From: Candidatus Bathyarchaeota archaeon
GTDB taxonomy: Archaea > Thermoproteota > Bathyarchaeia > Bathyarchaeales > Bathycorpusculaceae
Direction of reading: 5' to 3'
Assembly: GCA_963828195.1 (NCBI GenBank)
Contig: CAWHDT010000005.1
Span: 128,001 to 192,000, forward strand
Length of the DNA: 64,000 nt
Shown here: positions 5,970 to 16,316 of the stretch, piece after piece
How the letters are laid out: each line of letters opens with the position of its first letter
Numbering within the stretch: the first letter of the stretch is position 1
Made by a program: the position numbers and the translations under genes
Notes under the pieces: model-generated
The model's input: only the letters and a program-made list of their open reading frames with translations
Databases searched by the model: none
What the model was told of the DNA's origin: nothing

Positions 5970-6540
5970 CTATTGCAGGCTGGTAGGAGCTTTCTCTGCA
6001 AAAGGAGTATTGTTTTTAGAGGCAAATATTAGGTCATGCATTAAATTGAAATTTGAGTCTTTAGCAAACCGGTTTTTTATGAATTCTGAAAAATAGTTGC
6101 CGGTTAATTCTTGGACCTTTTTTTCGTCGCTGACGTATTTTAGGTGCAGCAGTTCATGTATCAACGCGGCTCGTGCTCTGTTGCCGACGAATGTAAACAG
6201 GTAGTCTTTTCCGTATTTCTTTCGGAACGCATAGCAGAAGTTGAAGGTTTTGGGGTAAATGCGGATTCGGCCCCTGAAAGTGTCGCATCTGCCGACGATG
6301 TTGAACCCGTTTTTTCTGCGAGCGGGAAAAACAGCGATATCCACGGTGTTAACGGTTTTTTCCCTCAATGTTTTCTACTGAAAGCATAGAGCTTAGAAAT
6401 TCTTGGAAGGAAGATTTTCTTAACGCTTTCAAAGTAAAGCGGGAATAATTTTTGTAAAAACCAGAATGCTTAGAGAAAGATTTGTCATATTCAAGAGCTA
6501 TGTTTATTTTGTCATAGAGCACCAAGTTTTGTTGTAGCAT
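5970..6540 (-). pseudogene. Frameshifted HExxH (zincin-like) protein split into two overlapping ORFs
   Basis: ORFs 6349-6540 and 5970-6368 join at GAGGGAAAAAACC (minus strand); deleting one base gives a continuous ~190-aa reading frame containing ALIHELLH. Confidence 0.6.
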
Positions 6541-6553
6541 ACTTATCGAAGGT

Positions 6554-6760
6554 TTACAGTGGATTAGTTTGCACTAGAAAAACGCTGTTCTTGTTCATCT
6601 TGGAGGGAGAACGTGTGAATCCATACGAATTGGCACAAGCATCCAGTCGGTGACTAGCAGAACACCTGATTCCAACAGTCTGCCCATTTTGCGAAATCCA
6701 AACAATTCGCCCCATTCGAGTACACTGAGGGCACTGCGCATAATCGCCGACAGTTACCAT
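6554..6760 (-). CDS. Small Zn-ribbon-like protein
   Basis: CPQC...CSASH in 68 aa; 13 bp upstream of the HExxH gene. Confidence 0.65.
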   Translation of the reverse strand: MVTVGDYAQCPQCTRMGRIVWISQNGQTVGIRCSASHRLDACANSYGFTRSPSKMNKNSVFLVQTNPL

Positions 6761-7241
6761 GTTAAAGCCTCGGTTCTTGTCATATTACGCGTACAGCCAC
6801 TATGTGTAGCTGAGTTTGATTCAACAAAATTTTTCCCTAAACTAAATCTTAACATGTACATTTTTTTCCCCTCTATCTTTTGAAAAGTAAGCCAGTAACC
6901 CAAACCCACGCGAGCGCAAAAGAGACTTTTCATCTATAACATAGTCTACTCTGCTTATAAACAAACGTTAAAAAAAATCCTTGTTCTCAACAAAATTCAT
7001 TAAATAAAATGTTCGTTGTCTCTACATTTTCTGGTTCTCCAAAGCGCCCTGCACAAAATATTTCAAAAACAACAATACGTGACGTCTTTTTTCCAGATGT
7101 TTTGAGAAGCATAAGGTGGTGTTATGTTGGTTGTAACCGTAGACTATAAAAAAACATTTGGTTCTCGTTGGCTTGAATCGAGCGCATCCTTATATAAGTC
7201 TTCGAAATTTTAAAGTTACAAGTTAAATTAGAGGTTAAGTT

Positions 7242-7961
7242 ATGGCTGCATTTGCACAACCAGGCGCATATGATTATGCAAACACCGTTTTCTCCCCAGA
7301 TGGACGGCTCTACCAAGTTGAATATGCCCGAGAACTAGTTAATCGCGGCGGCACCATTATAGGCATCAAATGTGCAGAAGGCGTCGTTCTGGCTTCAGAA
7401 GAAAACAGCGAAAACTTCGAAGAAACAGACCACTCATGGAAAATTTTTAAAATCGACGAACACATCGCAACAGCCATAGTAGGCTTAAGTTCCGACGCAA
7501 GAGTGCTAATTGACCACGCACGCCTCAGTGCCCAAAGCAACAAACTAGCCTATGATGAACCCATCGATGCAGATGCCTTAACCCAAAAAATATGCAACAT
7601 CCAACAAACCTACACACAACAAGGCGGGGGACGACCCTTCGGCGTCGCCATGATCATAGGCGGAGTAGACAAAACAGGCGCACACATACTTCGAACTCAC
7701 CCGAGCGGAAACTACACGGGATACAAAGCCACCGCAATAGGCGCAGGAACAGAAACAGTTCTGCCAATGCTGCAAGACGCCTACCGAGAAGACTTAACAC
7801 TTGAAAACTGCATAAAACTCGCAGTAAAATGCCTACTAAAAACCCTAAAAGAACGGGAGCTCCCCCCAAAAATAACGATTGCCACAATACCTACCGCAAC
7901 AAAAAAACTGGATATGCTATCTGACAAAGCGGTAGAAGGCTACATCAAAGAGACTTCTTAA
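7242..7961 (+). CDS. psmA: Proteasome alpha subunit (stand-alone, probably a paralogue)
   Basis: YDxxxTVFSPDGRLYQVEYA alpha signature; GGTIIGIK; KIFKIDEHI; YTQQGGGRPFGVA; upstream TTATATAA box. Confidence 0.93.
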   Translation: MAAFAQPGAYDYANTVFSPDGRLYQVEYARELVNRGGTIIGIKCAEGVVLASEENSENFEETDHSWKIFKIDEHIATAIVGLSSDARVLIDHARLSAQSNKLAYDEPIDADALTQKICNIQQTYTQQGGGRPFGVAMIIGGVDKTGAHILRTHPSGNYTGYKATAIGAGTETVLPMLQDAYREDLTLENCIKLAVKCLLKTLKERELPPKITIATIPTATKKLDMLSDKAVEGYIKETS

Positions 7962-8124
7962 CTCCAAAAAGCTGTTTCTTTACGTGTTTCTTGTTAAAAA
8001 CAGAGGCGATTAGACCAAAAGGCAGTATGCTTGCTCCACCGAGTTATCGCTTCTAAAAATGGGCTGGTGATACTCAACAGTTATAGTTCACAGGGAAAAA
8101 TTATTAGAACAACCTGTTACACAT

Positions 8125-8382
8125 ATGTTCTTTATGAACAAATCAGAAGCTTTAGTGGTGTTGAGTGAGATTCGTGATGCCTTAAAGAAAGCGGAGGTCT
8201 CAAGCTGTGTTTCCCTCGATAACTCACAGGTATCTCACGTATCAACCGGCGGGTACGAAATAAAAATGAAATGCGAATTTGACAGCGTATCAAGGGATAT
8301 CATAAACGTCATACTGAAAAGAAATGCATTATACATGAAAGAACAAAACGGCTACGTAATTTTACGTTCCCTCAAAGACTAG
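8125..8382 (+). CDS. Hypothetical protein (~82-85 aa)
   Basis: ORF with an upstream AAAAATTATTA promoter-like element. Confidence 0.6.
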   Translation: MFFMNKSEALVVLSEIRDALKKAEVSSCVSLDNSQVSHVSTGGYEIKMKCEFDSVSRDIINVILKRNALYMKEQNGYVILRSLKD

Positions 8383-8468
8383 TATGAAGTGACGAGCAAA
8401 CTCGCCTTTTTAATCGCATAACATTTCAGCCAAGTCATGTTGGTCCTGCGCATAGAGGCATCTTTTTG

Positions 8469-8562
8469 TGGGCGTGGTGTGTTGGTTGCAACCCGCCTTC
8501 TGTTATCTGTGGCATTCGGCTAATCGGGCTACCCACGCCTTCCGGTAGAAGCTTCATCAGGC
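8469..8562 (-). repeat. Direct-repeat copy of the 3' ~92 nt of the RNase P RNA gene (att-like site)
   Basis: Hand alignment to 13578-13669 shows about 7 differences in 94 nt, same orientation. Confidence 0.92.
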
Positions 8563-8633
8563 TCTTCTCCATCTTAGTGATTAACCATAAAATTTATTTC
8601 TGTGGCAGAGAAATAAATTATCTGATAATAAAA

Positions 8634-8867
8634 ATGTCTGAAAAAGTAAAAGTTGGAATGCGCGGTCAACTGGTTATTCCAAAAAAGTTTCGCAAGAAAT
8701 ACAACATTGAAAATGGAATAATAGTTGAAATTGACGATACAGACAAAGGCTTACTTTTGAAACCGTTTGACCCAGTGGCTGAATTGAAAGGCATCGGAAA
8801 AGGCCTGTTTGGAGACCCAGTCAAATATCAAAAAAAGCTTCGCGAAGAATGGGACTCCGAGAAATGA
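8634..8867 (+). CDS. vapB: AbrB/MazE/SpoVT-family antitoxin
   Basis: MSEKVKVGMRGQLVIPKKFRKKYNIENG; ATGA overlap with the PIN gene; start set at ATG 8634. Confidence 0.88.
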   Translation: MSEKVKVGMRGQLVIPKKFRKKYNIENGIIVEIDDTDKGLLLKPFDPVAELKGIGKGLFGDPVKYQKKLREEWDSEK

Positions 8868-9277
8868 AGATTTGCTTAGACACCAACATTCTCATTTATT
8901 TTGTCGAAGGAGCCGAGCCTCAGGCGAGCAAAGTGGGGAAAATCCTTAGAGCATTTATGAAGGCTGAAGCGGAAGGAATCATTTCAACCATAACCGTAGG
9001 CGAAGTCTTAACAGGCGTCTACAAGTCAGAAGACAAAAGCAAACCCACAGTAGTAAAAAAGTTACTGAACGATTTAACTCTTAACAGCCTCAAAATAGTG
9101 CCCGTCACCTTTGAAATTGCAGACTTAGCCGCCGACCTTAGATCAAAAAGAGGCGGAAAACTCCCCGACGCCTTAATTGTCGCCACAGCACTCAACCAAA
9201 AAGCCGAAATAGTTTACTCACAGGATAAAGACCTGCAACGCTTCAACAAAGACGCAAAAATCTGTGAACTGCCATAA
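8864..9277 (+). CDS. vapC: PIN-domain toxin
   Basis: CLDTNILIY, ISTITVGEV, LPDALIVATA, YSQDKDL; the PIN acidic residues are present. Confidence 0.92.
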   Translation: MKICLDTNILIYFVEGAEPQASKVGKILRAFMKAEAEGIISTITVGEVLTGVYKSEDKSKPTVVKKLLNDLTLNSLKIVPVTFEIADLAADLRSKRGGKLPDALIVATALNQKAEIVYSQDKDLQRFNKDAKICELP

Positions 9278-10237
9278 AGCGCTCTTACCGCAGGGCAGGG
9301 CAGGCCAGCCGCCGTAGTTTTTAACTATGTCTGGGAAGCGAAGTTTTTGCTAGTGTTTTATAGTGAGCTGGAATATTGCCAGCCACGCATTCGTTATTTG
9401 CAAAATCGTATAAACAAAGTCATAATGCGAAACCGAAAACTGCTTATACAATGCTGCCTCAGGTAAGGGATTAATGGAAACAATGGTTCCATGCCCGATA
9501 AGAAATCAAATTCTTAGAATCATAAAATTATTAGAGGAAAAAAAATGACAACGAAAAAATCCAAAGTAGTTAGCTTAACAAAAACAACAGACTTTAAATA
9601 TAGACTCAAAGAGCGCCAAAAGAAAAATCGAAGCGCCAACAAAACAATTGAGACATTTTTACCCATTTCAAACGAAGAGACACCCAAAAAAACAACTAAC
9701 CATAGTTGATGTGTACTTTTCTCTGAATTTGCCTTTAAGAAGCCGCCACCTTGACAGTAAACTCCCAAATAAGGTACAGATTAACGTTTAACCAACAAAC
9801 TTACGGGTTTCCAAATTTAGTTTAAACCCTTGCCGATGAAAAGTAGAATGTCCTACTATAAATTATCTTCGGTGACTTTGCTCAAAGGTTTGTCTTTAGA
9901 AGTCATTGTTTTGGTTTTTCTTATTGAGTTTTCCCAGCGAATCAACTGGGTAACCCCAGAAAAATAAGATAAAAACCCTTTTACACGTGCGCTTTCATTA
10001 TAGCATATCTGAAAAGACGCAGTAACCAAGCTTATTACGTCGGATATTTCCGTTTTTAAGGTTTTTCCGCGCTAATTTGTTCATTAACTATTATTGTTAG
10101 CATGCCTTCTCAAAACTTGCTATTTTCATCTCAATTTGCCTCATAAAGCTTTGCCGACGTAGGCTTTTTTTTTAATTGTAACAGTTATAGATTACTTTAT
10201 AAGCTGCCGCAAGACATAAGATACATAGGTTGTTTTT

Positions 10238-11440
10238 ATGAGCGAAACTCCCAAAACTTCTCGAGAGACTGAAACCCGTACTCGTGCGCGAAAAAAGAAA
10301 AATTTAGCCCTTGAAAGTCTAACCATTTGGGTTTTGCCTTTCAATCGGGCGCTCCTTAATCTTCAGGAACTCCATCGACGAAGTATTAGCAGTACCAAGC
10401 CCGCTCAAATCTCGGTTTTATCGGAAGTTTCGGCCAAACATGCCCAAAAATTATTTCTAGAGGGATTGGGCTCTATGTTAGGTCAACTGGCTGTGATACC
10501 AGATGAGGGAAGGCGAAATTTCCTAAACCACATTTTGTCATTTGCAAACGAGAGCAGTTCGTTTGATGGTTTGCAGTCACTGTTTGTCAGCGCGTTGCAC
10601 TCAGTGGCAGCTCAAGGGAATGCTGAGGAGGTCCACAAGGCCAGTGAAGTTTGGAAGCGTGTTGGCCCCGCCGAACAAATCGATGGTGGAATATATGCTA
10701 ATGCTTTTCTGAATACAAGCTCCGATACGATATGGATGTTGAATCAACCTACCGTTGCCAGCCTAGTGGATTCAATAATAGACGATTCGAATTTTGAGTT
10801 CACAGTGTCCGGGAGCGACGGGAACGGAGACACCATTATAAACAGTGGGGTCAACAGCGTAGGTTTAACGAGTTGGGAAAATATCCACGGAGGAGATCCT
10901 TTCGAGGGAGATGACGATGATGACGATGATGACGATGATGACGATGATGACGATGATGACGATGATCAACCAGCGCCAGGGCCGAGTTGGTCCGCTTGGA
11001 CCTGGGGGAAAGGATTGATTTGCAGTACAGCTATGAAGTTGGCTTGTGGTGGTGCTTCTGAGGTTCCGTTGATAGCGGGTGGTTGTTGGCTAGCCACAAG
11101 TGCTTTATGTTCTTATTGGGCTAGCCATACTGCTGGCGGAGGTCCCGGCGGTGGGGATCCGGAACCAGCTTTTTCAAACGATAATGAAGTGGACGCCGCA
11201 CTTGTGGGTGGTGCCCCATCCGTACAAGTCATGATTCCAGCGGTAGCGGGATCAGATTCTTTAGTTGGCATGTCAATGGCTGGAATTCCGCGCGTTTCTA
11301 ATAATGCGACGACATTATCGGAAGCGGGAGTGCTTTCAGCAACAACTTCAAGAGGAGCAATGCCGGGTGATGACGACGTCCCCGATCCTAATACGGGCCC
11401 TCGCGTAGCTAGAGCGCACGCACGACCCAGACACGAATAG
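10238..11440 (+). CDS. Putative precursor protein: helical N-domain, 19-Asp spacer, Trp/Gly/Cys-rich core, low-complexity tail
   Basis: 400-aa ORF preceded by a TTTATAA box (~10196-10202); all four Cys lie in one C-x7-C-x12-C-x7-C block right after the poly-Asp run. Confidence 0.75.
   Translation: MSETPKTSRETETRTRARKKKNLALESLTIWVLPFNRALLNLQELHRRSISSTKPAQISVLSEVSAKHAQKLFLEGLGSMLGQLAVIPDEGRRNFLNHILSFANESSSFDGLQSLFVSALHSVAAQGNAEEVHKASEVWKRVGPAEQIDGGIYANAFLNTSSDTIWMLNQPTVASLVDSIIDDSNFEFTVSGSDGNGDTIINSGVNSVGLTSWENIHGGDPFEGDDDDDDDDDDDDDDDDDDDQPAPGPSWSAWTWGKGLICSTAMKLACGGASEVPLIAGGCWLATSALCSYWASHTAGGGPGGGDPEPAFSNDNEVDAALVGGAPSVQVMIPAVAGSDSLVGMSMAGIPRVSNNATTLSEAGVLSATTSRGAMPGDDDVPDPNTGPRVARAHARPRHE
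10910..10966 (+). repeat. Coding tandem repeat (GATGACGAT)x6+GAT encoding 19 Asp
   Basis: Perfect 9-bp unit counted directly. Confidence 0.95.
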
Positions 11441-11588
11441 CTGGTGAGCATTCTACTCACATAGCAAGGTATTGCAAGCGAGTAACCGAATACGTGATTG
11501 TTGGATGCGGAGACACAGAGGGCTACCTTATCAACTCTAGCATGTTTTCTTTGCAGAATTGAATCCTGTCACTTGACGAGAGGCGACC

Positions 11589-13334
11589 TTGATAAACAGC
11601 CCTAATAATCGCGAGGTATCGGCGCTATTTAATATTGTACGCAAAGTGATTGCTGCGAGACTCATGGGCCTGGAATTCAAAATTAGTCCAGTGGATGAAT
11701 CAGATCAAAAGACAATCGTTAACATTACAATTCGCATACATGGCAAAGTATGTGGATCGATGAGTGGAAATGACTCAACGCTATCCCAGGCAGTTTCAAT
11801 CGCAGCATGGCGGGCTGCTGGTGACAATAGGTTTGGTCCACCTATATCACACGTTGATTTTCCGGAATCCACTTTGGAATTGTGGATTCAGAAGAGCAGC
11901 GAACCTCTTCCCGTTCGTGAAGTCACAAATATCGACATGGGGTTGGATGGCATAGAGTTGAGGAGGGGCGACAAATTCGCTTACTTTAAACCATCTGTTC
12001 CTCTCACAAGTGAGATAAAAAGTAGCGTCCGCCTTTTACGAAAGCTATCCCGGAAGGCAGGTCTGAGCCCAGAACAATGGCGTCATGAAGGAACAACATT
12101 GAGGCGCACAAGATGGGATCATTATATTGAGACCACAGGGCAGAAATCTGGGGTGTTGCAACTGCACCGATTGCGTCCTATCAATCCACTTGAGCCTACA
12201 AAAAAGAACGTGTCACAATTTCTTAGACTTGCTCAGAACAGGCTCCTAAATGTGCAATCGAATGATGGGTTATACTTGTACAAGTACCAACCCTTCTCAG
12301 AAAAAGCATCAGGAAGTCGAATGCATGTAGTTCGCCAAGCTGGTTGCACGTACGCAATAGCAGCCGCGGCAGCGCAGGAAACAGATAAAGAAAGAGCCGC
12401 AGTACTTGAAGAAAGTGCCGTCCGAGGAGTTAAATTCCTCTTGAGATTTAGCTCTTTCACTCCTAAAGGAGGTCTATATCTCGATGAAGCAGAAACGCAT
12501 GGATCATCAAATCGCCCCAAGCTGGGCTCAGCCGCTCTCCTCCTGTTGGCATTGCAGTTTGGTCAGCTTGCGCATAAATTTGACCGAGAGCGGGCGTCGC
12601 TCGTCACAGCTATACTCAATCTTCAGAACTCTGACGGCTCATTTCGATGTTATTTTAACAGCAGTTCTCATTTAGGCGATGGAGCATCTCAAAACTTCTT
12701 TCCCGGCGAGGCGCTTCTTGCGCTTACTCACGAAGCACGACGTGGTCGAGCCGATTGCAGAGAAGCTGTAGAGCGGGCTTTTCACTGGTACAGGGAATAC
12801 TTTGGGCGAAGCCCAGCGACAGCCTTTGTCCCGTGGCAGGTTGATACTTGGCGGCGGGCTTTTGAGTGGGATTCGAGTTCTAACGAATCAATTCTCCACG
12901 ATTCCGAAGGTTATCCCGAATTCGTGTTCAAGATGATTGATTGGCTGTTGCAGTTCCAGCTGGGCGTGGATACTGAACCTTGGGACTCAGTTGGCGGATT
13001 CTCTTACAGAAATTCCGTGCCGGGATATTCCACTGCAACTTATGCTGAAGCAATTATCCGAGCGTATGGACTTTCGAAACACCTAAGACAAAGCGAAAGG
13101 ATGTTACGATATGCTCAGTCCTCGCTCTTGGCACTGCGTTTTCTGCTCCGGCTTCAGATTAATCCGGATACCGCTCCGCTATTTCCTGATCCCGCTCGCG
13201 CAGTTGGTGGCACGACGTCTAGTCTGAAGAATTTTATGATTCGAAGTGATTTTGATCAGCATACTATTACCGCGTTGATGGCTGCGTTAGAAGCGGCTGG
13301 TCTACTCGAAGTCAATGGAGCTCTTCCAAATTAG
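11589..13334 (+). CDS. AMMECR1-domain protein fused to an alpha/alpha-toroid (terpene-cyclase/LanC/glycosidase-like fold) domain
   Basis: AMMECR1 hallmarks: AAGDNRFGPP (cf. DPRFxP), GLDGIELRRG...YFKPSV, LSRKAGLSPEQW. C-terminal part has QW-like repeats (QSNDGLY, LQNSDGSF) plus KLGSAALLLLAL and FFPGEALLAL. Confidence 0.8.
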   Translation: MINSPNNREVSALFNIVRKVIAARLMGLEFKISPVDESDQKTIVNITIRIHGKVCGSMSGNDSTLSQAVSIAAWRAAGDNRFGPPISHVDFPESTLELWIQKSSEPLPVREVTNIDMGLDGIELRRGDKFAYFKPSVPLTSEIKSSVRLLRKLSRKAGLSPEQWRHEGTTLRRTRWDHYIETTGQKSGVLQLHRLRPINPLEPTKKNVSQFLRLAQNRLLNVQSNDGLYLYKYQPFSEKASGSRMHVVRQAGCTYAIAAAAAQETDKERAAVLEESAVRGVKFLLRFSSFTPKGGLYLDEAETHGSSNRPKLGSAALLLLALQFGQLAHKFDRERASLVTAILNLQNSDGSFRCYFNSSSHLGDGASQNFFPGEALLALTHEARRGRADCREAVERAFHWYREYFGRSPATAFVPWQVDTWRRAFEWDSSSNESILHDSEGYPEFVFKMIDWLLQFQLGVDTEPWDSVGGFSYRNSVPGYSTATYAEAIIRAYGLSKHLRQSERMLRYAQSSLLALRFLLRLQINPDTAPLFPDPARAVGGTTSSLKNFMIRSDFDQHTITALMAALEAAGLLEVNGALPN

Positions 13335-13578
13335 GCTTGCGTTTGGAACCATTCACCTTTTCCGTGAGATAATTGGGAGTAGTCGCTCAAAAGTTTGCGC
13401 GCAGTTTCAATCGCAACTAACTAAAAACAGATCGAACTGATGCGGAAAAAAGTTGGTGCGGAGGGTTAGGTTTACATTCACGTTTAAATGAACCCCTTGG
13501 AGCTTCATTCTCGTCTTGTTAAACTTTCGTTTGGCGTATTGGCTTTTTGAAATCTTCTGATGTTTACAACAAAGATTT

Positions 13579-13896
13579 GGGCGTGGTGTGTTGGTTGTAA
13601 CCCGCCTTCTGTTGTTGTGGCATTCGGCTAATCGGGCTACCCGCGCCTTCCGGTAGATTCTTCATCGGCGACTGTTTGCCCTTTCCACTTGCAGGACGGC
13701 CGTTTCACCGTTTCCAGTCTGGCGCACTCTGCGTCACTAACGCGTCATTGCCTATCCAGTTGGACGTTTCGTTTCTGCTCCGTTGCCAACGCTCTCGCGT
13801 TGCCCCAACGACGGGGCTGCAATTCTACATGTGGGCGGAGTTTCCTCAGACCCGCATTTTTTTGGGTCCGACAGCCACACACCAACTCGCCAGCCC
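13579..13896 (-). ncRNA. rnpB: RNase P RNA (archaeal)
   Basis: Minus strand carries CR-I GAGGAAACUCCGCCC and CR-V ACAGAAGGCGGGUUAC (the P4 halves are complementary). Termini pair as P1 (GGGCUGG..GUUGGU / ACCAAC..CCACGCCC). Length ~318 nt; divergent from the adenylate kinase gene. Confidence 0.93.
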
Positions 13897-13953
13897 AAAG
13901 GCATAAGCGTAATCGGAAGCAATAAGAATTTCCCAACCCATCAAGTATAACCC

Positions 13954-14541
13954 ATGACTAAACGTGTCATCCTCATAACAGGCACACCCGCGGTAGGCAA
14001 AACAACCACAGCGAAACAGCTAACCAAAATGCTGCCTGATGCCCTCTACATTAACTTGACCAACTACGCCAAAACCTACAAACTAACACAGGGCGAGGAC
14101 ACAGAGCGAAAAACAACCATAATTAACGAAGACAAAATGCGCACAAAACTCGCAGAAACCATCAACACCGCCGACGAAGCAGACATAATCATTGATGGGC
14201 ACTACGCCGCCGCAGTGACCCCCACGGAGCTGGTTTCCAAAGTGTTTGTTCTGCGCCGAAACCCCAAAGAGCTAAAGCGGTTCATGGAGAGATGCGGTTT
14301 TGAAGATGCAAAGCTTTGGGAGAACCTGTCAGCCGAGATCCTGGATGTCTGCCTAATTGAGGCGTTGCAGATGCAGGCGGGCAAAGTCTGCGAGTTGGAT
14401 GTGACGGGCAAATCAGTTGAGGATGTTGTGAAGGACATTTTGGATGTTTTGGATAGGGACAAAAAATGCTTTAGCGGCGTTGTGGATTGGCTGGGGATGC
14501 TTGAGCGAGAAAGCTTAACCGACCAGTACTTAAAAGCTTAA
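13954..14541 (+). CDS. AK6/Fap7-type archaeal adenylate kinase
   Basis: ILITGTPAVGKTT P-loop; IIIDGHY motif; ENLSAEILDVC. Confidence 0.9.
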   Translation: MTKRVILITGTPAVGKTTTAKQLTKMLPDALYINLTNYAKTYKLTQGEDTERKTTIINEDKMRTKLAETINTADEADIIIDGHYAAAVTPTELVSKVFVLRRNPKELKRFMERCGFEDAKLWENLSAEILDVCLIEALQMQAGKVCELDVTGKSVEDVVKDILDVLDRDKKCFSGVVDWLGMLERESLTDQYLKA

Positions 14542-14562
14542 TGATGGAAAGCAAGCGCTATT

Positions 14563-15561
14563 TTAAGCACTTGACCTTAACCATCCTCTTCGTTTGAAAA
14601 GCAGCGTAAGGGTCAAAGCAACAGCAACCATTATTGCAATCATAACGTAGAAGCCGTAGGGATTAGTTGTTCCAGGAATAAATCCTGATTTGAAACTCGT
14701 TCCATAAATTCCAGCAATCAAACTCAGCGGAAGAAAAATAGCTGAAATTATCGTGAGAACCCTAATTATGTTGTTAGTTGTTACTGTTTGAGCGTTGACC
14801 AAGGTGTCTCGGATGTTGCCCATTTCTTCCCTGTGGGCATCGACAACCTCCACCAGCTGAATTGTTCGGTCATAGAGGTCTGCGAAACGGGGAAGGTTCA
14901 CTCCTTGCACAAGCGCAAATTCTCCCCTTGTTATTCTTCCCATGATTTCGCGAAGCGGACTCAAACTCTGCCTAAGAGCCACCAGCCGCTCTCTTAGCTT
15001 AAAAACTTCAGTCCCAAAACTGCCCGATAGCCTTGACCCTTGTCTGAAGAACCCGAAGGCTTCCAGATTAAACGCATTAATCTTGTCGAACACCGCGTCT
15101 GAAACTGGGTAATATTCACTCGTGACTAAATCCAAGAAAATATATAGCATAATATCCGTTGAGGGCACAAGTGAAAGCGAGAAATAGCCGTGCGTGCCTA
15201 TTTTTTTGTAAACAGCACAAGTCAAATCTGAATAGCCCTTATGCAGCGTTATTATCCATCTTGAACAAACAAGCATCGCCAAACGTTCCATTTTCCCATC
15301 AGAAATAAAACTTTCCCGATTCGGAAAATTAAGAAGACAGAACACGCGATCTTCATGCTCATCAATTCTTGAACGAACCCCTTCATCAGTAAGTTCCTGA
15401 ACGTTGTGTTCATCTATGGCAAAATAGTCCTCCAGCTCTTTCATTTCGGAATCAGTCGGGTCTTGGGCATCTACCCATAGAACTTCAGCTTTACCAATTT
15501 CTTCAGGCAAAACCTCTAAATTTCCCGATTGCCATCTGCCTTCTTCGTGTTGCTTGAGCAA
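14563..15561 (-). CDS. corA: CorA-family Mg2+/Co2+ transporter
   Basis: WVDAQDPT; LTIISAIFLPLSLIAGIYGTSF (GMN variant); C-terminal FKRRGWL. Confidence 0.88.
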   Translation of the reverse strand: MLKQHEEGRWQSGNLEVLPEEIGKAEVLWVDAQDPTDSEMKELEDYFAIDEHNVQELTDEGVRSRIDEHEDRVFCLLNFPNRESFISDGKMERLAMLVCSRWIITLHKGYSDLTCAVYKKIGTHGYFSLSLVPSTDIMLYIFLDLVTSEYYPVSDAVFDKINAFNLEAFGFFRQGSRLSGSFGTEVFKLRERLVALRQSLSPLREIMGRITRGEFALVQGVNLPRFADLYDRTIQLVEVVDAHREEMGNIRDTLVNAQTVTTNNIIRVLTIISAIFLPLSLIAGIYGTSFKSGFIPGTTNPYGFYVMIAIMVAVALTLTLLFKRRGWLRSSA

Positions 15562-15734
15562 AGTAATTGTCAGCAGCTGCCATCCACCGAATAAACTTAA
15601 TGAGAATTCTCCTTTGTAAACCTAACCATCTTTTACAGAGACACACGGATAAATGGTACAACCGAAATCGAAACGATTACTTTGATTGATCCGGAACCAA
15701 AAAACCAGCCTAAAACAAGACCTAAACGCAAACT

Positions 15735-15905
15735 AGCCTACCTATAGACCTGCCTGCTATTTGCACGAAAAATTAGCTACAAAAAGAAACGGGAAGAAGA
15801 AGAAGAAAAATTGTTTTCTGAGGCTTCTTCTTCTTCTTTTAAAAATAAATATTGCCGAGAAGAACAACATTCATTTTTTAGGTGTTGTTGTTCTTTCAAA
15901 ATTAA
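15735..15905 (+). repeat. Dispersed non-coding double-hairpin element, copy 1
   Basis: AGCCTACCTA..CCTGCTATTTG..GAAGAAGAAGAA-spacer-TTCTTCTTCTTC..AGAACAACA-spacer-TGTTGTTCT-TTCAAAATT; collinear with the reverse complement of 34872-35062. Confidence 0.8.
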
Positions 15906-15953
15906 AATCGGTAAAAAAATTCAGCTACAAAAAGCGCCATGCAAAAGCGCAGG

Positions 15954-16316
15954 CTATCTGAAGCTGCCGATTTTCTGCTTGGTAAGCAAAGTGATTTTTC
16001 GGCGGTTGCTGTAGGATTTGGCGTGGTCGCTGAATTTGTCGCCGATCATGATGGGGCTGCCTAACCCGACGTCTTCGGACGATGAGTCTAAAGCTATGAT
16101 TACGTTTACGCCTATAGTGCGGTTCCAATCTCTGACCCAAACACCCTGCTCCACGCGTCCCTTCTGCACTGTTAGGTCAAAATGGCGTCTTTCGCCGCTG
16201 TAGCCTTCAAGCACAATATTTTCCCTGTTAACTTTGTAACCTTCTTTTTTGAAGTACTGAATTGCCAGATCCAGCAGGTTGGACCTCGGCTTGATTTGTT
16301 CTTCTCCAATGCTCAT
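15954..16316 (-). CDS. Mrr-like PD-(D/E)xK-fold protein, catalytic motif degenerate
   Basis: YFKKEGYKV..LEGYSG..HFDL..IMIGDKFSDHAKSYS; the ExK position reads WVR. Confidence 0.7.
   Translation of the reverse strand: MSIGEEQIKPRSNLLDLAIQYFKKEGYKVNRENIVLEGYSGERRHFDLTVQKGRVEQGVWVRDWNRTIGVNVIIALDSSSEDVGLGSPIMIGDKFSDHAKSYSNRRKITLLTKQKIGSFR

Follow-up and report, generated by a model that had tools for sequence, protein, structure and literature searches.

An integrase-less island beside the RNase P RNA gene of a Bathyarchaeota archaeon as a probable member of an integrase-built array

The rnpB gene and displaced copies of its 3' end

We analysed a 64-kb stretch of DNA (hereafter the window) from Candidatus Bathyarchaeota archaeon (contig CAWHDT010000005.1, positions 128,001 to 192,000), in which 5.0 kb of accessory genes, here called island A, lie between the intact RNase P RNA gene, rnpB, and a displaced copy of its 3' end. 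The genome assembly comprises 2.83 Mb in 9 contigs, with 96% completeness and 3.5% estimated contamination, and rnpB is single-copy in it. Across the entire window, cmscan against Rfam returned a single match at or above the gathering score, RNaseP_arch (RF00373) at 13586-13890 on the minus strand. Its score was 190.3 bits (gathering score 84), and it covered positions 1-288 of the 288-position model, and a full-length candidate target gene thus stands at one end of the island. No tRNA genes were found in the 64-kb window. Read in the sense of rnpB, the array runs from rnpB through island A, fragment 2, a segment with a proteasome alpha paralog (psmA) and fragment 3 to a conserved flank. Its features are as follows (nt, nucleotides; aa, amino acids; ORF, open reading frame; att, attachment site):

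13954..14541, plus strand: AAA_18 P-loop kinase-like gene (PF13238), conserved flank 5' of rnpB
13586..13890, minus strand: rnpB, intact RNase P RNA gene (RF00373), candidate integration target
13578..13666, minus strand: attL-side repeat, last ~81 nt of rnpB plus 8 nt past its 3' end (direct repeats, 90-nt alignment)
8563..13577, no strand: island A, 5.0 kb, accessory genes but no integrase, flanked by the two repeats
8469..8562, minus strand: attR-side repeat, fragment 2, a displaced, decaying rnpB 3' end (repeats, blastn)
7140..8468, no strand: older array segment between fragments 3 and 2, with the psmA paralog and an 85-aa orphan ORF
7113..7139, minus strand: fragment 3, a short rnpB 3'-end remnant and the outermost array repeat (18/20 match)
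5970..6760, minus strand: conserved distal flank past the array, 132-aa and 68-aa ORFs (synteny in the relatives G002 and G023)

The direct repeats consist of two blocks, 8469-8504 paired with 13578-13613 (97%) and 8508-8558 paired with 13616-13666 (94%), which blastn merges into 90 aligned nt with 93.3% identity, 5 mismatches and 1 gap. The displaced copy (8469-8558), oriented like rnpB, has its start 8 nt beyond the 3' terminus of the RNA and is found 5.1 kb downstream of rnpB in gene sense, placing a direct repeat of the target's 3' part at the other island end. Its match reached an E-value of 5.8e-32 in a blastn search of the whole genome. A 20-nt word from the 3' terminus of rnpB, with up to 3 mismatches allowed, occurred three times in the window compared to 0.00 expected from 100 shuffles; an origin of the repeats by chance is excluded. 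The third occurrence is a remnant at 7119-7138 with 18 of 20 bases matched. A first-pass annotation of this DNA had described an intact rnpB (13579-13896, minus strand), a same-orientation copy of ~92 nt with about 7 differences and an interval filled with accessory genes but devoid of an integrase. The Infernal/Rfam coordinates and the 90-nt alignment bear this out, the interval holds a VapBC-type gene pair and genes for 54-aa, 400-aa and 581-aa proteins, and Pfam, tblastn and a profile hidden Markov model (HMM) agree on the lack of an integrase; the remnant at 7119-7138 was not among the annotated features.

Two further rnpB 3'-end fragments occur elsewhere in the same genome (G000), both distant from rnpB. 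One of 55 nt (G000:C5:450718-450772, equal to L053:10719-10773; 82-86% identity) is flanked by a gene for HMG-CoA reductase and by a PIN gene, the other (G000:C1:153897-153918) comprises 22 nt with 95% identity. Rearranged arrays or insertions at secondary sites may have left them behind.

Integrases and repeats at rnpB in related genomes

For the genus, we compared 15 loci with sequence downstream of rnpB. The AAA_18 gene adjoins the 5' side of rnpB in 11 of the 15 loci, and a 120-aa ORF and a TtuA-like gene usually come next; the 3' side is different in every genome. In 5/15 loci (G003, G010, G015, G014 and G008), a gene or gene fragment of the tyrosine recombinase family PF00589 (Pfam E-values 5.4e-17 to 1.6e-15) abuts the 3' end of rnpB, the G010 integrase being split into two ORFs and that of G014 being a C-terminal fragment. 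Counting the N-terminal integrase remnants that tblastn detected at rnpB in G019 and G021, 7/15 loci carry an integrase gene or remnant. Repeats of the genome's own rnpB 3' end (22-58 nt) recur further downstream in 7/15 loci, and a search with the window sequence revealed one more in G014, giving 8/15 in all. The first-pass annotation had predicted a family of rnpB-targeting elements and proposed surveying Bathyarchaeia for rnpB 3' duplicates and adjacent integrases; both turned up in the relatives, at the 8/15 and 7/15 genus loci given above.

In G003, a 306-aa integrase gene on the same strand begins 3 nt after rnpB, and perfect rnpB repeats of 26 nt and 25 nt follow at 4.5 and 11 kb downstream; judged from its gene and repeat content, this element looks intact. 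The rnpB repeats of the genus loci have the core AAGGCGGGTTAC..CCA.CACACCA in common and stop a few bases beyond the 3' terminus of the RNA. In four species (L037:16320-16377, L050:5545-5601, L044:10363-10430 and L047:6690-6749), the outermost repeat additionally has a conserved left arm, with the palindrome AGTAA-AAAA-TTACT just upstream of the core; this arm may represent an ancient junction common to them or a binding site of the arm type.

Three further observations concern these loci. In the window, a CorA-type Mg2+ transporter gene (14563-15561, minus strand) separates the AAA_18 gene from the 120-aa ORF; the two are directly adjacent in most same-genus loci, and a CorA match was present in 0 of 18 compared loci. 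Full-length rnpB was not found in the 95%-complete G020 genome, where only a 150-nt rnpB-like sequence (L051, C75, 14881-15030; 72.7 bits, under the cut-off) corresponds to positions 1-23 joined to positions 184-305 of the window's rnpB. This truncation could reflect an assembly collapse, a pseudogene, or a true copy that was left unassembled. Finally, three genomes from other families (L069:2998-3882, L080:1-443 and L061:3650-3757) have a 23S rRNA gene no farther than ~1 kb from rnpB.

Across the order, we examined a sample of 151 genomes, in 112 of which rnpB was found. Homologues of the G003 integrase (E <= 1e-15) were present in 98/151 genomes, a set that excludes the window's own genome. 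Among the best 30 loci, full rnpB stood immediately upstream on the same strand in 13 and an rnpB 3' fragment (62, 27 or 16 nt) in 3, so that 16/30 integrases were tied to rnpB; 7/30 were associated with a tRNA (one of these by a weak match) and in the other 7/30 no target was detected. One of the fragment-preceded integrases is the second of a tandem array, 5 kb after rnpB.

A quick IQ-TREE phylogeny of 34 integrase rows, with the Shimodaira-Hasegawa-like approximate likelihood ratio test (SH-aLRT) as sole support, was built after matches shorter than 200 aa and one duplicate locus had been dropped and stops read as X. It recovered a 22-row clade (SH-aLRT 94) that contained 14 rnpB-adjacent and 3 fragment-adjacent integrases, 4 with no target and 1 with a weak tRNA match, while 6 of the 7 tRNA-linked rows fell outside. 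Integrases of the G015 type, encoded on the strand opposite rnpB, and of the 422-aa G008 type form separate lineages of the tree that are also located at rnpB.

The linkage extends to other families. A species-wide scan considered one genome per species and its best 80 loci; its genomes overlap with the order sample, and the two sets of counts are not independent. Here rnpB was upstream on the same strand in 32/80 loci, 31 of which end no more than 147 nt from the integrase match, and perfect rnpB fragments of 19-32 nt were located within 160 nt upstream in a further 8/80, amounting to 40/80 in total. By title, 77 of the 80 loci belong to metagenome-assembled genomes (MAGs) of Bathyarchaeota, Bathyarchaeia, Bathyarchaeum or Bathyarchaeales, 1 to Hermodarchaeum and 2 to 'uncultured archaeon'. 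Tyrosine integrases abutting rnpB occur both in same-genus and in other-family genomes, and tandem arrays in which a short rnpB fragment precedes the second integrase were observed in G057 and in one complete chromosome.

The rnpB-linked proteins carry the catalytic residues of tyrosine recombinases (PF00589): across 14 clade sequences, R128, K153, R222, H245 and Y254 (G003 numbering) show no variation or almost none. SSV-type ('suicidal') archaeal integrases, which have the att site inside the integrase gene, are comparable in that they, too, are tyrosine recombinases of archaea directed at the 3' part of an RNA gene (PMC7253208). Unlike these, the rnpB-linked integrase ORFs are whole (282-332 aa) beside rnpB in the integrated state. 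They begin at or just after the rnpB 3' end, and integration thus leaves them unsplit.

A gene for a protein of ~380 aa lies within 3 kb of the integrase in 7/29 loci. The protein has an invariant P-H-x-H motif and a conserved Tyr, and 2 of 7 members match Rep_1 weakly (best E 0.0048). Its fold model, of poor quality (mean predicted local distance difference test score, pLDDT, 55) gave nothing at E <= 0.001 in Foldseek, and several HUH Reps were among its structural neighbours together with ribosomal protein S6, at VIA-align Z <= 5. We consider a rolling-circle HUH Rep a lead, not a finding. A search of IMG/VR for close relatives of the clade integrases yielded none, only 13 weak partial matches of at most 32% identity.

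Origin and mobility of island A

An intact gene on one side and a 3' fragment on the other side of an interval is the signature of tyrosine-integrase insertion at tRNA and tmRNA genes. Taken together with the arrays of the relatives, the arrangement in the window suggests that the rnpB 3' end would serve as chromosomal attachment site (attB) for tyrosine-integrase elements of Bathyarchaeia. An incoming element would recombine within the last part of rnpB and supply its own rnpB 3' end, so that the ribozyme gene stays whole while the host's own 3' end, displaced to the opposite border of the element, persists there as a repeat in the same sense. Successive insertions would then build a tandem array downstream of rnpB. 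We conclude that island A is very probably an integrase-less member of such an integrase-built array at an rnpB attachment site, whose integrase was presumably lost or never present and which might be maintained in part by its VapBC addiction module. By comparison with the relatives, island A itself would have arrived by this kind of recombination, with the crossover presumably within the last part of rnpB.

Several observations weigh against this reading. Foremost, no integrase or integrase remnant was detected in island A or the entire 64-kb window. The integrase usually found beside the target is in place in relatives but not in island A, where Pfam searches of the island ORFs detected no integrase, tblastn with 7 integrase queries against 6900-14000 gave a best E-value of 0.27, leaving aside an artefact over the rnpB end, and a profile HMM of 33 relatives' integrases reached at best an E-value of 0.54 against 176 six-frame pieces of the same region. 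Considering that the window holds no integrase, the link of island A to an integrase is by analogy. Second, the window repeat of ~90 nt is long compared to the 22-32 nt of repeats beside intact integrases; long rnpB fragments of 62 and 116 nt also occur beside clade integrases. Third, the sites at which the two window repeats differ mostly mark the intact copy as genus-like, and one marks fragment 2 as such, so that either copy may be the host-derived one. Fourth, G003 has an AbrB-PIN gene pair without an rnpB fragment beside it, implying that cargo modules also move independently. Fifth, no clean empty site was found for this species. We also considered whether a decayed rnpB fragment lies beside the G003 AbrB-PIN pair; a search found none and the idea was dropped. 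An 85-aa ORF (8125-8382) that by eye resembled a relic of an integrase C-terminus was likewise dismissed, the profile HMM giving an E-value of 6.3.

The nearest comparison is provided by G023, in which rnpB is followed by ~1.85-1.9 kb and then by an orthologue of the window's psmA paralog (79.5% nt identity). Beyond this psmA, as seen from rnpB, comes a perfect 22-nt rnpB repeat, ~240 nt upstream of the gene, and after it the 68-aa and 132-aa ORFs that are also found in the window; fragment 3 of the window thereby has a positional counterpart in G023. This gene order implies that island A is absent there, and together with the presence of the 581-aa gene in only 1 of the 151 genomes of the order it suggests that the content of the island is sporadic. 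The 1.85 kb between rnpB and psmA of G023 did not align with the 0.46 kb of the window. As a separate observation, one G023 contig (L049 end, C4) ends exactly at the rnpB 3' end, and another (L050 start, C13) duplicates the same 2.7 kb and then extends; such a branch of the assembly graph at the att site could represent strain variation.

The repeat might also have formed without site-specific recombination, if the rnpB 3' end was duplicated locally and genes were inserted later, or if foreign DNA entered by homologous recombination via rnpB-like sequence. The missing integrase would fit this origin, as would the occurrence of the AbrB-PIN pair and the psmA paralog in other contexts in other species. 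However, in many genomes the same-sense 3' fragments stop at one common boundary immediately beyond the 3' end of rnpB, they lie directly upstream of integrase genes in arrays, and such a fragment pattern is specific to integrase att sites. This renders an origin without an integrase very unlikely.

Likewise, a chimeric metagenome join at repeated rnpB-like sequence could have produced the arrangement, considering that the assembly has multiple contigs and some estimated contamination and that related rnpB genes co-occur in the same samples. Yet the locus lies inside a 954-kb contig, both of its flanks are syntenic with relatives, and analogous arrays occur in the single-contig genomes G003 and G014, which makes an assembly artefact extremely unlikely. 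A run search found 11 runs, each with at most 38% of the sampled words, and the Logan contigs of four soil/bog runs, one of which may stem from the source sample, were compared with positions 6000-16000. In X1, X2 and X3, these low-depth contigs contained pieces of 150-490 nt that match the island and both flanks perfectly; among the pieces listed, none spanned either junction, and no joint of the kind expected for a circular attP or a restored attB was seen.

As to its present state, we consider the array member island A most likely a fixed, immobile remnant, since no rnpB-clade integrase was found in the genome. It could still be mobile if the integrase of an incoming rnpB element recombined its ~90-nt att repeats in trans. 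The two repeats are long and agree at 93% of their positions, integrases specific for rnpB are frequent among the genomes of the genus, and helper-mobilised islands without an integrase are mentioned in the TIGER/Islander announcement (PMC12424338). We nevertheless regard mobilisation in trans as improbable. The 96%-complete genome has 0 homologues of the clade integrases at E <= 1e-15, and its 5 PF00589 matches, all outside the window, are distantly related genes that lie either on different contigs or far from the array on the same one. Moreover, fragment 2 is mutated within the shared core, where G replaces A in the word GGGTTAC; the rnpB 3' ends of relatives read GGGTTAC in 13/14 and GGGTTAT in 1/14 cases, with A at that position in 14/14. 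The same island was also not found elsewhere: its 581-aa gene is present in 1 of the 151 genomes of the order, namely the window's own.

The principle is the classic one of tRNA/tmRNA islands, and rnpB as a target seems new as far as the literature was searched. Genomic islands and proviruses of the Islander/TIGER type, which tyrosine integrases insert at the 3' ends of tRNA and tmRNA genes, share with the rnpB loci an intact RNA gene with a same-sense 3' fragment, an integrase beside the target, tandem arrays and decayed integrase-less members, but the target here is the RNase P ribozyme gene and the copy in the window lacks an integrase. According to the TIGER/Islander announcement (PMC12424338), tRNA and tmRNA genes hold 33.8% of the mapped islands, and Islander examines these two classes of genes only. 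The temperate phage phiEf11 integrates into ffs, the gene of the 4.5S/signal recognition particle (SRP) RNA, in Enterococcus faecalis with a 27-nt core (PMC12540744, in part). It resembles the rnpB elements in that its attB is a structured RNA gene other than a tRNA and its integrase lies close to attP, but it is a bacterial phage at ffs, whereas here the host is an archaeon, the target is rnpB and the elements are small and not visibly viral. That 2025 paper lists tRNA/tmRNA and csRNA genes as known RNA-gene targets, calls ffs novel and has RNase P in its reference list only. No report of rnpB as an attachment site was found in the full-text literature searched, with island-survey tables and supplements outside that scope, nor in the available parts of PMC2864759, PMC12424338, PMC12540744, PMC10848311, PMC7002104, PMC7921747, PMC2705793, PMC3541175 and PMC2824730.

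With moderate confidence, we extend the interpretation beyond the window: the rnpB 3' end may be the dedicated site of a Bathyarchaeia-wide integrase clade that arose from tRNA-targeting relatives, with at least two other lineages having converged on it. The elements would be small and plasmid-like, with an integrase and a possible HUH-type Rep, and the arrays would form a hot spot where genes are captured, among them toxin-antitoxin pairs, a paralog of the proteasome alpha subunit and genes resembling bacterial ones; as far as our searches reach, rnpB would not have been described as an attachment site before. Bathyarchaeia are abundant and uncultured, and few of their mobile elements are known. 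Because island-mapping software based on tRNA/tmRNA genes would overlook rnpB elements, rnpB could anchor a search for mobile DNA in these archaea. An integrase clade with a defined, universal and essential target would also be a candidate tool for site-specific insertion in archaea. In addition, the arrays illustrate how accessory genes, here including a second proteasome alpha subunit and a gene with otherwise bacterial clusters, build up beside an essential ribozyme gene that stays unbroken.

Accessory genes of the array

The genes of the older segment and of island A are as follows:

7242-7961, plus strand: accessory proteasome alpha paralog, psmA (Pfam Proteasome, E 4e-52)
8125-8382, plus strand: 85-aa orphan ORF in the older array segment
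8634..8867, plus strand: AbrB/MazE-type antitoxin, VapB-like, 77 aa (PF04014 E 3.1e-8; TIGR01439 E 2.6e-9), putative
8849..9277, plus strand: PIN-domain toxin, VapC-like, 142 aa (PF01850 E 4.9e-22), putative
9545..9709, plus strand: 54-aa basic ORF (blastn and pairwise alignment of the surrounding DNA)
10238..11440, plus strand: 400-aa orphan, no family, contains 20 consecutive Asp (9-nt repeat at 10901-10972)
11589..13334, plus strand: 581-aa protein with an N-terminal AMMECR1 domain (PF01871 E 5.8e-10) and a long C-terminal part

The antitoxin and PIN genes, situated at the island edge, overlap by 19 nt. In this overlapping AbrB-fold and PIN pair the edge of island A resembles the VapBC type II toxin-antitoxin modules known from genomic islands, but the PIN protein is to be regarded as a putative toxin, given that the NCBIfam VapC models match it with scores under their cut-offs. 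The 581-aa protein also matches TIGR04335 below the model cut-off (E 7.7e-12). Its nearest ESM-Atlas clusters are all bacterial, an affinity that we treat as a lead only. The 400-aa orphan gave no match in Pfam, NCBIfam, PADLOC or PHROGs and no usable match in ESM-Atlas, and no homologues of the 400-aa or 581-aa genes were found in the rnpB loci of relatives.

The psmA paralog is one of two alpha copies in the genome. The second copy (C5:423380) is 68% identical to it, and this second copy, ~64-70% identical to the accessory paralog, is present in nearly all genomes of the genus. The accessory gene itself has orthologues (75-77% identity) in 6 of the 24 other genomes of the genus. The contexts of the accessory gene in four or five other species are unrelated, each genome's being different, and similarity is confined to a module of ~840 bp (~7170-8005) that extends from ~70 nt ahead of the start codon to ~45 nt beyond the stop codon. 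The accessory psmA of G001 has an integrase fragment at a distance of ~800 nt.

A 364-nt stretch of island A (9426-9789) that holds the 54-aa ORF is 83% identical to DNA of G020, where the counterpart lies ~600 nt downstream of the rnpB remnant of that genome. An 82-aa ORF opposite the 54-aa ORF has an odd composition and no family match. Conservation is higher upstream than within the 54-aa ORF: the ~120 nt at 9426-9545, which include a short hairpin, are ~95% identical to G020 and may constitute a promoter, an operator or a small RNA. Lastly, a PIN gene of 112-124 aa recurs beside rnpB or its fragments in G002, G003, G020 and the second site of the window's own genome (L042:14629-15003, L037:16404-16778, L052:15313-15687 and L053:10802-11140).

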